From: Escherichia coli
Lineage (GTDB): Bacteria; Pseudomonadota; Gammaproteobacteria; Enterobacterales; Enterobacteriaceae
Length of the DNA: 64,000 bases
Assembly: GCF_003019035.1 (NCBI RefSeq)
Contig: NZ_CP027447.1
Reading direction: 5' to 3' (one strand)
Shown: piece by piece, positions 1-56,136 of the stretch
Numbering within the stretch: the stretch's first letter is position 1
Layout of the letters: each line of letters begins with the position of its first letter
Made by a program: the position numbers and the translations under genes
Notes under the pieces: generated by a model
What the model saw: only the letters and a program-made list of their open reading frames with translations
Database searches by the model: none
Told to the model about the DNA's origin: nothing

Positions 1-446
1 GCGCCCATTAACTGCAAATTCAGTAACATCGGTAACCCACTTCTCGTTTGGCCGCGTAGCCTTGAAATCTCTTTGGAGAACATTAGGGGCGGTTTGCCCT
101 ACCTCTCCTCTGTAAGAGCGGTATCGCTTGACCTTAATCGCTGCTTTAAGTGAGAGGGTTCCCATCAGGCGCTGAACAGCTTTATGGTTAATCTGTTTCC
201 CTTCTCGATGAAGAGACAGCGTTACCCTACGGTATCCGTATCGGCCTCTATTCTCATGATAAATCTCACCAATACGCTTTTTAACGTCCGCATACTTGTC
301 AGGCTTGCTGAGCCTTTAGATGGTAATAAAACGTACTGCGCGGTATCTCCGCAGCCCTGAGAAGCTCATCAAGAGGATAAAACTGCCTTAGCTCGTTGAG
401 TACTTTCACTTTTTCGTGGGATGAACTAAGGCTTTCAGCTTTTTTA
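1..446 (-). CDS. insK: IS150 transposase OrfB (InsK), N-terminal part only; expressed as an OrfAB fusion by -1 frameshifting; truncated by window edge
   Basis: Open frame in the -1 frame relative to insJ downstream of the slippery heptamer; no ATG of its own, as expected for IS3-family OrfB. Confidence 0.6.
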
Positions 447-53230: not shown

Positions 53231-53593
53231 TTAGATCTCCGGGAACGTGGAATAGTCAGTCTTTTTCTCGGCGGCGAGTTGATGCTCCAGCCGGGAAATT
53301 CGGTCAGAAAGTGCGGCGATTTCCGGGTCAGTCGCTTTCTCCTGCGACGCAACATGTGACTGCATGCCCCAGCCGCGCTCCGGTTGGTAGAGCGTCGCCC
53401 AAATCCACAGGAACGGCCAAATTACATGGAGGGTAAAAAGGCTCACCCAGCCCGCAGTATGGATCGCATCGGCATGGGGATGATTACGCTTTTTGGCAAT
53501 CAGATAAGGGATGTCATGTATCGCGATGATTCCATAAAAAATCACCAGAAAGACGAAGATCAGCACTCCCAACGCGAAGTAGTTTAGAAACAT
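53231..53593 (-). CDS. yibI: DUF3302 inner membrane protein; start at internal ATG ([11 protein letters not shown]...)
   Basis: ORF 53231-53695; known 120-aa protein starts at 53593. Confidence 0.85.
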
Positions 53594-53769
53594 ATCTGCC
53601 TCGGATTCACGTTTATCAGTGTTGTTTTTGGCTGGCAGCCAGATGGGAGTCGGGCTGATATTTTGACAATAATCCGGGTTGGCGATTCTCGCCATAACAC
53701 CGAAGAATAATTTTTAGAGGTGATGAGTTGCTTAGTTACATAACGATTTTATGACGAAGGCATAACATG

Positions 53770-53985
53770 CTGCAGATCACATCAGGTGAACGCCGTAAGA
53801 AAATATCTTGTGATTCAGATCACAAAGATTCAACAAACTAACAAAACAAAAATGTGACATTACTCACATTTAAATGCCATTTTTAGCGAAAATCGCCGCC
53901 TTGTTGCTTTTTTACACAAGAGTTTTGTGATGCACATCACGTCAATTACCTCTCTACCCCCTATATTTATGTGATTCATATCACA
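53770..53985 (+). promoter_or_regulatory. mtlA promoter/operator region with a cluster of CRP-type palindromes
   Basis: TGTGATTCAGATCACA (53808-53823), TGTGACATTACTCACA (53852-53867), TGTGATGCACATCAC (53925-53939), TGTGATTCATATCACA (53969-53984). Confidence 0.65.
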
Positions 53986-54128
53986 CAAAAAGCCGTCGAC
54001 TGGACAGTTAACCGATTCAGTGCCAGATTTCGCAGTATCTACAAGGTCCGGCTACCTCTGCCGCCACATTAACAAAAAACCTCGGGCTTCCAGCCTGCGC
54101 GACAGCAAACATAAGAAGGGGTGTTTTT

Positions 54129-56042
54129 ATGTCATCCGATATTAAGATCAAAGTGCAAAGCTTTGGTCGTTTCCTCAGCAACATGGTGATGCCAAATATC
54201 GGCGCGTTTATCGCGTGGGGTATCATCACCGCGTTATTTATTCCAACTGGGTGGTTACCGAACGAAACGCTGGCGAAGCTGGTCGGGCCGATGATCACTT
54301 ATCTCCTGCCGCTGCTGATCGGTTATACCGGTGGTAAGCTGGTAGGCGGCGAACGTGGCGGCGTAGTCGGTGCCATTACCACCATGGGCGTTATCGTCGG
54401 CGCAGACATGCCGATGTTCCTCGGCTCTATGATTGCAGGTCCGCTGGGCGGCTGGTGCATTAAGCACTTCGACCGCTGGGTAGACGGTAAGATCAAATCC
54501 GGTTTTGAAATGCTGGTGAATAACTTCTCCGCAGGCATCATCGGGATGATCCTCGCTATTCTGGCATTCCTCGGCATTGGCCCGATTGTTGAAGCCCTGT
54601 CTAAAATGCTGGCGGCGGGCGTTAACTTCATGGTTGTCCATGACATGCTGCCGCTGGCGTCTATCTTTGTTGAACCGGCGAAAATCCTGTTCCTCAACAA
54701 CGCTATTAACCACGGTATCTTCTCGCCGCTGGGTATTCAGCAGTCCCATGAACTGGGTAAATCCATCTTCTTCCTGATTGAAGCTAACCCAGGTCCAGGT
54801 ATGGGCGTGCTGCTGGCGTACATGTTCTTTGGTCGTGGTAGCGCTAAACAGTCTGCGGGCGGTGCGGCAATCATCCACTTCCTGGGGGGTATCCACGAAA
54901 TCTACTTCCCGTATGTGCTGATGAATCCGCGTCTGATTCTGGCCGTTATCCTCGGCGGTATGACTGGCGTATTCACGCTGACTATCCTGGGCGGTGGGCT
55001 GGTTTCTCCGGCATCTCCGGGTTCTATCCTTGCTGTACTGGCGATGACGCCAAAAGGTGCTTACTTCGCTAACATCGCGGGTGTGTGTGCGGCGATGGCA
55101 GTCTCCTTCGTTGTCTCTGCTATTTTGCTGAAAACCAGCAAAGTGAAAGAAGAAGATGATATTGAAGCTGCTGCGCGTCGCGTTCAGGAAATGAAAGCTG
55201 AGTCTAAAGGCGCGTCTCCGCTGTCTGCGGGCGATGTAACTAACGACCTGAGCCACGTACGTAAAATCATCGTTGCCTGTGATGCCGGTATGGGTTCCAG
55301 TGCGATGGGCGCAGGCGTGCTGCGTAAGAAAATTCAGGATGCAGGTCTGTCGCAGATTTCGGTCACTAACAGCGCGATCAACAACCTGCCGCCAGATGTG
55401 GACCTCGTCATCACTCACCGTGACCTGACCGAACGCGCTATGCGCCAGGTTCCACAGGCACAGCATATTTCGCTGACCAACTTCCTCGACAGCGGCCTGT
55501 ACACCAGCCTGACCGAACGTCTCGTTGCTGCCCAGCGCCATACTGAAAACGAAGTGAAAGTGAAAGACAGTCTGAAAGACAGCTTTGACGATTCCAGTGC
55601 TAACCTGTTCAAGCTAGGCGCGGAGAACATCTTCCTCGGTCGCAAAGCGGCAACCAAAGAAGAAGCGATTCGTTTTGCTGGCGAGCAGCTGGTGAAAGGC
55701 GGTTACGTTGAGCCGGAATACGTTCAGGCGATGTTGGATCGTGAAAAACTGACCCCGACTTATCTGGGTGAGTCTATCGCGGTGCCACACGGTACGGTTG
55801 AAGCAAAAGATCGTGTACTGAAAACGGGCGTGGTGTTCTGCCAGTACCCGGAAGGCGTGCGCTTCGGTGAAGAAGAAGATGACATTGCCCGTCTGGTGAT
55901 TGGTATTGCTGCCCGTAACAACGAGCACATTCAGGTTATCACCAGCCTGACCAATGCGCTGGATGATGAGTCCGTCATCGAGCGTCTGGCACACACCACC
56001 AGCGTGGATGAAGTACTGGAACTGCTGGCTGGTCGTAAGTAA
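54129..56042 (+). CDS. mtlA: PTS mannitol-specific EIICBA component
   Basis: 637-aa [34 protein letters not shown]... Confidence 0.97.
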
Positions 56043-56045
56043 TAC

Positions 56046-56115
56046 AATCCCTCCCTCTCCACATGGAGAGGGTTTGGGTGAGGGAAAAGCCTCACCCCAG
56101 CCCTCTCGGGTAAAA
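56046..56115 (+). repeat. Intergenic tandem hairpin element between mtlA and mtlD
   Basis: CCCTCTCC-ACAT-GGAGAGGG followed by GGGTGAGG-GAAAAGC-CTCACCC. Confidence 0.55.
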
Positions 56116-56136
56116 ACATTGATGAAGGTTAATACT

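Follow-up and report, generated by a model that had tools for sequence, protein, structure and literature searches.

What are the two stem-loops between mtlA and mtlD in Escherichia coli, and do they have a role in the expression of the mtl operon? A first-pass annotation of a 64-kb stretch of E. coli DNA (64 000 nucleotides, here called the window) had described two perfect stem-loops in this spacer and proposed that they may act as an mRNA stabiliser, a partial terminator, or a REP-like element regulating the two genes differentially. By its block order, the feature is a copy of the repeat family BoxC, later named PIT (potential intrastrand triplex) and then TMECO (PMC4666352), in what looks like an incomplete inverted-pair arrangement, and on the same grounds the E. 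coli mtl copy is a degenerate, newly recognised member of this known family. We suggest tentatively that it serves as an RNA structure in the mtlADR mRNA.

Hairpins and repeat family of the mtlA–mtlD spacer

In the window, mtlA (54129..56042) ends in a TAA stop codon at 56040-56042, according to both the open reading frame list and the RefSeq annotation of SCU-301, and mtlD, encoding mannitol-1-phosphate 5-dehydrogenase, occupies 56137..57285 on the + strand, with a 382-aa homology match from the first ATG. The spacer is 94 nt (56043-56136). The 801 bases flanking the feature are 100% identical to E. coli SCU-301 and 96–98% identical to about 5,400 other complete E. coli genomes, in which the flanking genes are annotated as mtlA and mtlD. 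Hairpin 1 (56053-56072) pairs CCCTCTCC (56053-56060) with GGAGAGGG (56065-56072) across the loop ACAT, and hairpin 2 (56076-56097) pairs GGGTGAGG (56076-56083) with CCTCACCC (56090-56097) across the loop GAAAAG; each has a perfect 8-bp stem. The two stem-loops are thus real and lie inside 56046-56115, between the mtlA stop and the mtlD ribosome-binding site, as first described. The 8 bp originally given for hairpin 1 stand, while the 7 bp given for hairpin 2 fall one pair short.

The minimum free energy (MFE) fold of the RNA from 56040 to 56140 contains both hairpins and two weak ones, at −38.7 kcal/mol. Dinucleotide shuffles of the same segment have a mean of −25.8 ± 3.5 (z = −3.73), and 1 of 200 shuffles was equally stable; the RNA folding proposed as a check on the stem-loops therefore bears them out. 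Each hairpin pattern occurs once in the 64-kb window, for a chance expectation of 0.

The published family consensus is 5'-CCCTCNCCC N3-6 GGGNGAGGG N3 GGGNGAGGG-3' (Holder et al. 2015, PMC4666352). The window reads CCCTCTCC-ACAT-GGAGAGGG-TTT-GGGTGAGGG, followed by an inverted partial copy. The forward unit is complete, with a pyrimidine block, a loop, a purine block, a 3-nt loop, and a second purine block, and departs from the consensus in the length of blocks 1 and 2, 8 nt instead of 9, and in loop 2, which is TTT where type A has TTA. The remainder, AAAAG-CCTCACCC-CAG-CCCTCTC, reads as a second unit in inverted orientation, whose loop is the type-B-like CTG and whose last purine block is missing. 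In this layout, hairpin 2 arises where block 3 of the forward unit pairs with the opening block of the inverted one. With block 3 placed antiparallel on the purine strand of hairpin 1, each of the eight stem positions forms a canonical triplet of the purine motif (G*G.C, A*A.T, T*A.T), and the purine–purine half is identical to the K-12 profile consensus at 19 of 20 positions. In K-12, a type A and a type B unit face each other as an inverted pair at 5 of 18 sites of the family, and the published triplex data cover 9-triplet types A and B (PMC4666352).

Neither the 64-kb window nor the spacers of E. coli and E. albertii contain a match to a regular expression for the strict consensus. In this test, the window reads CCCTCTCCa / tGGAGAGGG, and the E. 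coli copy fails it because its blocks are 8 nt. By contrast, 24 of 80 orthologous spacers, all from other genera, match the strict consensus, and a relaxed pattern with 8-nt blocks has one match in the window, at 56054. A profile built from 23 K-12 TMECO copies is significant against the orthologous spacers of most genera (best 41.6 bits, E = 7e-11) and scores 14.5 bits against the K-12 spacer (E = 0.02). In the window, under a heavy composition-bias correction, it aligns only at model positions 16-35 (+ strand, 6.7 bits) and 17-34 (− strand, 8.4 bits). Because this correction depresses the profile score, the identity of the window copy rests on the pattern, the triplet rules, and the orthologues.

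The mtl copy is missing from the 23 K-12 copies listed in Table 1 of PMC4666352, which has no entry between 3.61 and 3.78 Mb, and neither mtlA nor mtlD is mentioned in the text of Holder et al. or in two of its supplements (PMC4666352). PMC2267715 cites 32 BoxC copies catalogued by Bachellier 1999, so that the literature gives 23–32 family copies in K-12 (PMC4666352 and PMC2267715); the older BoxC catalogues may already include the mtl copy. Profile and pattern scans found no other TMECO copy in the 64-kb window. BLAST (E<1) of the 63-nt element against 5,426 E. coli genomes returned one copy per genome, which does not speak against a repeat family, since a 28-Gb database masks short diverged copies.

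Among Rfam families, a scan of 53500-58500 (E<=10) brought up a single hit at noise level, mir-2954 (18 bits, gathering score 96, E = 8.5). The canonical G-quadruplex motif (four G3+ runs separated by N1-7) does not occur on the sense strand of the window element, which has three GGG runs; the full motif is present in 38 of 70 orthologous elements. The REP consensus palindrome (GCC[G/T]GATG..., CTTATC[C/A]GGCCTAC) is absent from the 94-nt spacer of the window, and REP membership was rejected after alignment of the window with K-12, O157, and a long allele. The term REP-like therefore holds in the broad sense, for a copy of a dispersed palindromic intergenic repeat, and fails in the narrow one.

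The two hairpins are not the only pairing available; the first-pass annotation had overlooked a further segment. The GAGAGGG of the 3' arm of hairpin 1 is also complementary to the downstream CCCTCTC (56101-56107), as part of a longer inverted repeat with the same centre and 18-nt arms (56066-56083 with 56090-56107, 89% complementary). The resulting long hairpin is the MFE fold on the minus strand. This option for CCCTCTC gives three mutually competing blocks, and not merely two independent hairpins. The features of the locus are as follows, all on the + strand.

56040..56042, + strand: mtlA stop codon TAA (open reading frame list and RefSeq annotation of SCU-301)
56053..56060, + strand: block 1, pyrimidine, CCCTCTCC, 5' arm of hairpin 1, 10 nt past the mtlA stop; counterpart of the TMECO consensus CCCTCNCCC, one position short
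56061..56064, + strand: loop 1, ACAT; free to vary among species and among E. coli alleles (TCAC in K-12 and O157)
56065..56072, + strand: block 2, purine, GGAGAGGG, which closes hairpin 1 as its 3' arm or forms the 5' base of the long hairpin; core unchanged throughout 69 aligned sequences
56073..56075, + strand: loop 2 or junction, TTT; TTA, CTA, TTC, or CCA in other genera; covaries with 56098-56100
56076..56084, + strand: block 3, second purine block, GGGTGAGGG, 5' arm of hairpin 2 and potential third strand of a triplex in single-stranded DNA
56085..56089, + strand: apical loop of hairpin 2, AAAAG, with G56084 unpaired; 5-25 variable nt in other genera
56090..56097, + strand: block 3', CCTCACCC, 3' arm of hairpin 2 and first block of the inverted partial second copy
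56098..56100, + strand: junction CAG, whose complement CTG is the type-B-like loop 2; covaries with 56073-56075
56101..56107, + strand: block 2', CCCTCTC, partner of 56066-56072 in the long hairpin; 97.9% paired in the alignment; the closing purine block of a full inverted pair is missing after it in all species
56108..56136, + strand: conserved tail, GGGTAAAAACATTGATGAAGGTTAATACT, the mtlD translation-initiation region with the Shine-Dalgarno sequence GAAGG at 56124-56128; mean identity 86% across genera
56137..57285, + strand: mtlD, ATG at 56137-56139, placed by homology from the first ATG

The mtlD frame is open upstream through the spacer into mtlA, and the open reading frame list has an entry at 55954..57285 (443 aa); a caller of open reading frames could over-extend mtlD in the 94-nt allele. 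An N-terminally extended MtlD starting at 55954 was rejected because apical-loop and spacer lengths differ by non-multiples of three and the homology begins at the ATG at 56137.

Conservation and pairing across genera

Orthologues were collected by a scan with MtlD, taking one genome per species and the best 80 loci; Yersiniaceae, Pectobacteriaceae, and Hafniaceae are not in this sample. The element stands at the orthologous position of the spacer in 65 of the 80 species, where it runs straight into the conserved mtlD initiation region. Among the genera are Escherichia, Citrobacter, Salmonella, Klebsiella, Enterobacter, Kosakonia, Lelliottia, and Leclercia, and also Cedecea, Buttiauxella, Siccibacter, Franconibacter, Mangrovibacter, and Pluralibacter. 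The 39 stem columns have a mean identity of 92% to E. coli, compared with 54%, near saturation, at four-fold degenerate sites of mtlD, so the conservation is well above neutral. Loop 1 has 47 distinct sequences in 66 orthologues, and across genera the apex of hairpin 2 is anywhere between 5 and about 25 nt long. Hairpin 1 retains an 8–10-bp stem and a 3–6-nt loop in nearly all species. Such conservation would not be expected from repeats that have been described as making genomes unstable, with TM loci more rearranged between E. coli strains than control sites (PMC4666352).

Insertions in the spacer always lie between the mtlA stop and the element, never between the element and mtlD. They are REP in Citrobacter and Salmonella, BIME in Escherichia, ERIC-like in three loci (L011, L013, L050), other hairpins in Klebsiella and Superficieibacter, and an extra BoxC copy in two loci (L055, L061). 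The ERIC/IRU-like insert occupies about spacer positions 1-135 in Citrobacter werkmanii and C. youngae (L011, L013) and in Enterobacteriaceae RIT691 (L050), and carries GAATCCCCAGGAGC...GTGACTGGGGTGAGCG, which we take to be sites of ERIC-PCR primers. In Enterobacter sp. Cy-643 (L055) and Cedecea neteri (L061), an extra inverted BoxC-type unit lies upstream, at about 2342-2376 of the locus, giving three units in the spacer; it is weaker in L067. Other TMECO copies are found downstream of mtlR in only about 6 of the 80 species. Strict copies on the 3' side of mtlR, some of them inverted pairs, were seen at 5124-5362 in L020 and L024 and at 4665-4841 in L027, L028, and L030. These belong to a few Enterobacter, Pluralibacter, and relatives; there are none at this site in the window or in most other species.

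Is the pairing itself maintained? Covariation was analysed in a 69-sequence alignment under the long-hairpin scheme, which includes hairpin 2; the counts ignore kinship. Under this scheme, 91.4% of the cells are paired, compared with 36–58% in slid controls, and seven pairs have changes on both sides, a number reached by none of 500 shuffles. The helix of hairpin 2 (columns 37-45 with 63-71) is 93% paired, with five pairs changed on both sides; the double change in Franconibacter is GGGAAAGG with CCTTTCCC. The junction (columns 34-36 with 72-74) has UG 45, CG 19, and UA 4 at its first pair, UA 65 and CG 2 at the second, and CG 5, AU 3, and GC 2 at the third, so that TTC occurs with GAA, CCA with TGG, and CTA with CAG. 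Pairing is thus maintained across genera.

The choice between the two folds is close. In 65 of the 69 sequences, the fold with the long hairpin forced is lower in energy than the fold with it forbidden, by a mean of 3.3 kcal/mol over the set. In the window, the tandem fold is the unconstrained minimum, and the long hairpin follows at −36.9 kcal/mol. In Enterobacteriaceae, the mtlD Shine-Dalgarno sequence is not buried in any of the folds. Since RNA is said not to form purine-motif triplexes (PMC4666352), the hairpins would be the relevant fold in the transcript.

Erwiniaceae provide a separate case. Pantoea, Mixta, and relatives (loci L069, L071-L075, L077-L081, and L083-L085) lack the element and have two unrelated tandem GC hairpins at the same mtlA–mtlD junction, with the sequence GGGGCGGGC..GCCCGYCCC occurring twice, about 95 nt upstream of mtlD. 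These hairpins are conserved and show sense-strand G.U pairs and one or two compensatory changes. The consensus fold also has a CCC...GGG helix around both hairpins, with its 3' side about 10 nt before the mtlD start; in this predicted fold, the helix could occlude the ribosome-binding region.

Within E. coli, the element is kept in 5404 of 5426 complete genomes, while the spacer around it varies in length. A BIME adjoins the element in K-12, as it does in most E. coli. The K-12 spacer is 229 nt, and its BIME, made of two inverted REPs and an IHF-type linker, is flanked by direct copies of hairpin 1 (left, CCCTCTCCACATGGAGAAGG; right, CCCTCTCCTCACGGAGAGGG). E. albertii likewise has a hairpin-1 copy on each side of the BIME. 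Spacer lengths in 60 genomes, sampled systematically from 5,405, were as follows.

Spacer of 94 nt: 10 genomes of the sample
Spacer of 228/229 nt: 37 genomes, and 3 more scored as partial matches
Spacer of 318/319 nt: 6 genomes
Spacer of 419 nt: 1 genome
Spacer of 520 nt: 2 genomes

Of the three partial matches, the one inspected has a spacer of 228 nt. The longer alleles carry 4–8 REPs, with REP pairs added in steps of about 100 nt, all 5' of the element. The steps 229, 319, 419, and 520 nt (L087 201-720, L088 201-619, L003 644-962) look like tandem amplification of a BIME-2-like unit. The 94-nt alleles exist in at least two forms, with loop ACAT (the window) and loop TCAC (O157:H7). The simplest reading, in which the polarity is deduced from the arrangement, is that the 94-nt allele is derived, through loss of the BIME by recombination between the direct hairpin-1 repeats, and this loss would restore the single-hairpin layout of the other genera. 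Some long alleles already carry ACAT in the right copy, which blurs the position of the crossover.

Possible roles of the element

What is the function of the element in the mtlA–mtlD spacer? We suggest, with a probability set a little short of even, that it is a selected BoxC RNA structure in the mtlADR mRNA that would act as a post-transcriptional boundary of decay or processing, and not as a terminator. The element would have been in the spacer before the genera of Enterobacteriaceae diverged and would have been retained there by selection. The mRNA is predicted to fold into two tandem GC-rich hairpins, as in the window minimum, or into one long, near iso-energetic hairpin. This stable boundary would block 3'-to-5' exonucleases, mark a processing site, or both, and the mtlA and mtlD–mtlR segments of the transcript would have different lifetimes as a result. 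Within E. coli, the site just 5' of the element is a hot spot for a BIME of variable size. A precedent for the boundary role is provided by the REP elements at malE–malF, and PU-BIME repeats have been documented to stabilise mRNA and to act as attenuators (references in PMC2267715). Of the roles that the first-pass annotation had listed, mRNA stabilisation and differential regulation of mtlA and mtlD are plausible. The conservation across genera, the compensatory and G.U substitutions, and the comparable tandem hairpins of Erwiniaceae all fit a role at the RNA level. In the stems, read on the sense strand, 48 cells are G.U and 6 are A.C, an excess in the direction expected of an mRNA structure and a hint that RNA is the selected form. 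We infer from these patterns that selection may act on the RNA and that the mechanism may be decay or processing.

Several points weigh against this proposal. The G.U and A.C cells are sequences counted, not independent events, and the G.U excess could partly reflect a C-to-T bias of the non-template strand or a stronger constraint on the G blocks. The stems are near-invariant, beyond the needs of base pairing, so another constraint may act, such as a triplex, recognition by a protein, or homogenisation with other copies; this is the main reason for our limited confidence in RNA hairpins as the whole story. In earlier tests, the PIT/BoxC class showed no promoter or terminator activity and no effect on RNA polymerase, and it has no assigned function (PMC4666352). 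According to PMC11784389, MtlD is required for detoxifying the product of MtlA, so stabilising the mtlA segment is not obviously advantageous. The Term-seq tables of Adams et al. 2021 contain no 3' end in the spacer, from media in which the mtl operon is uninduced. Literature searches found no 3'-end, half-life, or expression work for the induced mtl operon, and searches on the mtlA–mtlD intergenic region, RNase III targets, and Term-seq gave nothing specific. As a separate observation, Adams et al. 2021 tabulate a 3' end of antisense RNA within mtlD, on the minus strand at K-12 NC_000913.3 3775490 (about 57200 in the window), which hints at antisense transcription into the operon from the yibT side.

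Could the element simply be a passive or selfish BoxC copy that landed long ago and owes its conservation to constraints intrinsic to the family, such as gene conversion or its own maintenance? The family has no known function, lies beside genes of all classes, and has copies within one genome that are extraordinarily alike (PMC4666352); the Enterobacter mtl copy is near the strict family consensus, and the E. coli copy is degenerate. However, the same truncated architecture occupies the orthologous position in 65 species in which synonymous sites are saturated, and the partial copy on the right directly adjoins the conserved mtlD initiation region. The rarity of TMECO copies downstream of mtlR and the different tandem hairpins kept at the same site in Erwiniaceae also argue against passive persistence, and the E. 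coli copy departs from the E. coli family consensus, counter to recent homogenisation. We regard a passive repeat as unlikely, though it keeps appreciable weight. A structure formed by the DNA itself, as a sense-strand triplex, a cruciform, or H-DNA with local effects on replication, transcription, or recombination, would make its flank a hot spot for indels, and the 5' flank indeed carries BIME arrays in E. coli, with spacers from 94 to 520 nt, and REP or ERIC inserts elsewhere. All eight triplets are canonical, TMECO oligonucleotides form stable triplexes in vitro, and the rearrangement of TM loci noted above points the same way (PMC4666352), whereas in vivo dimethyl sulfate footprinting did not support a stable triplex (PMC4666352). 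Instability would account for the variation around the element but not for the conserved element and its inverted partner, and block 3' (56090-56097) competes with block 3 as the third strand and yet is conserved with covariation. On balance, we think a DNA-level role rather improbable.

A device linked to translation would use the ribosome at the mtlA stop, which abuts or melts block 1. It could stall in termination, with less MtlA made, and it could also free block 2 for block 2', so that the fold would change from the tandem hairpins to the long one and mtlA translation would be coupled to the fate or translation of the mtlD segment. Liang, Rudd and Deutscher are said to have found in 2015 that REPs <=15 nt from a stop codon stall termination and lower output. 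The three competing blocks, with folds near iso-energetic in the alignment, would suit such a device, and hairpin 1 begins mostly 7–13 nt past the stop in insertion-free spacers (10 nt in the window), with an inserted REP or other hairpin itself beginning a few nt past the stop. In K-12, Citrobacter, and Salmonella, however, the functional hairpin 1 is 40–170 nt from the stop, so the switch cannot be universal; the hairpin-distance scan has no control, and no fold hides the mtlD Shine-Dalgarno sequence in Enterobacteriaceae. We hold both parts of this joint reading, the action at the stop codon and the coupling, to be quite improbable. A crude and permissive scan of the first 15 nt past the mtlA stop in the 80 loci, without a control and to be taken qualitatively, places the start of a GC-rich helix within about 5–13 nt of that codon in most Enterobacteriaceae, be the helix BoxC hairpin 1, a REP, or a hairpin peculiar to the lineage. 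A partial intrinsic terminator or attenuator, which the first-pass annotation had also raised, would fit the stable GC-rich hairpins within the transcript, and a BIME can attenuate transcription (Espeli et al. 2001, as cited in PMC2267715). The hairpins are followed by UUUGGG, CAGCCC, and GGGUAAAAAC, none of which is a U-tract; a terminator scan of both strands of 56043-56136 found no terminator-like site, and PIT elements showed neither promoter nor terminator activity in tests (PMC4666352). The element thus lacks terminator features, and we judge termination very unlikely. A promoter scan of the spacer was empty, and an internal promoter was rejected.

A decay or processing boundary thus remains the role that we propose. 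A more elaborate possibility, to which we give little credence, is that the domesticated BoxC copy is a three-block RNA device, with a ribosome-dependent fold switch at the mtlA stop that would set the stability or translation of mtlA relative to mtlD–mtlR, and with an analog that evolved separately in Erwiniaceae. If this were true, the switch would balance mannitol uptake against mannitol-1-phosphate detoxification, and the element would be the first BoxC member with a physiological role, in an orphan family about 30 years old. The first catalogues of BoxC/PIT/TMECO sequences date from the early 1990s; despite their triplexes in vitro and their association with unstable loci, no function has been assigned to them. 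The mtl copy lies in a well-understood operon, is present in dozens of genera, and has an unrelated counterpart in a sister family, which makes it a tractable case at the RNA or the DNA level, and the natural E. coli alleles of 94, 229, 319, 419, and 520 nt are ready-made variants. Should the element prove inert, it would show that a repeat copy can be strongly conserved across genera with no function at its locus.

Comparison with known systems

The hairpins of Erwiniaceae share with the mtl element the site between the mtlA stop and the mtlD start and the presence of two consecutive GC-rich hairpins, but their sequence is unrelated and they lack the triplex-type block order. REP/BIME (PU) elements, for example at malE–malF, are likewise short, GC-rich, and palindromic, often lie inside an operon near the upstream stop codon, and are documented 3'-exonuclease barriers that stabilise upstream mRNA; the role proposed for the mtl element is analogous. 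They belong, however, to another sequence family, and the window spacer has no GTAG/CTAC tetranucleotide and no IHF-type L motif. The BIME that lies between the two hairpin-1 copies in K-12 is absent from the window allele.

With the BoxC/PIT/TMECO family (Bergler 1992; Bachellier 1999; Hoyne and Maher 2000; Holder et al. 2015), the mtl element shares the intergenic site, the 3-nt second loop, the three-block order, and the near-identical blocks CCCTCTCC(C), GG(G)AGAGGG, and GGGTGAGGG. Compliance with the triplet rules and flanks that are hypervariable between strains are also common to both; the mtl element resembles, in incomplete form, an inverted pair of a type A and a type-B-like unit, and K-12 TMECO no. 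8 has the CTG loop found in the mtl inverted unit. The mtl element differs in that its inverted partner lacks the terminal purine block in every species, that its inter-unit spacer is only 5–6 nt in E. coli, and that it lies inside an operon transcript, at a site orthologous family-wide, whereas BoxC loci are described as unstable. The inverted pair at hrpB–mrcB in K-12 (TMECO nos 1 and 2) has the same Py-Pu-Pu, spacer, Py-Py(-Pu) symmetry and begins 13 nt past the upstream stop codon. That pair is complete, with six 9-nt blocks and a 16-nt spacer, whereas the mtl element lacks the sixth block, and its CCCTCTC is thereby left with two alternative partners.

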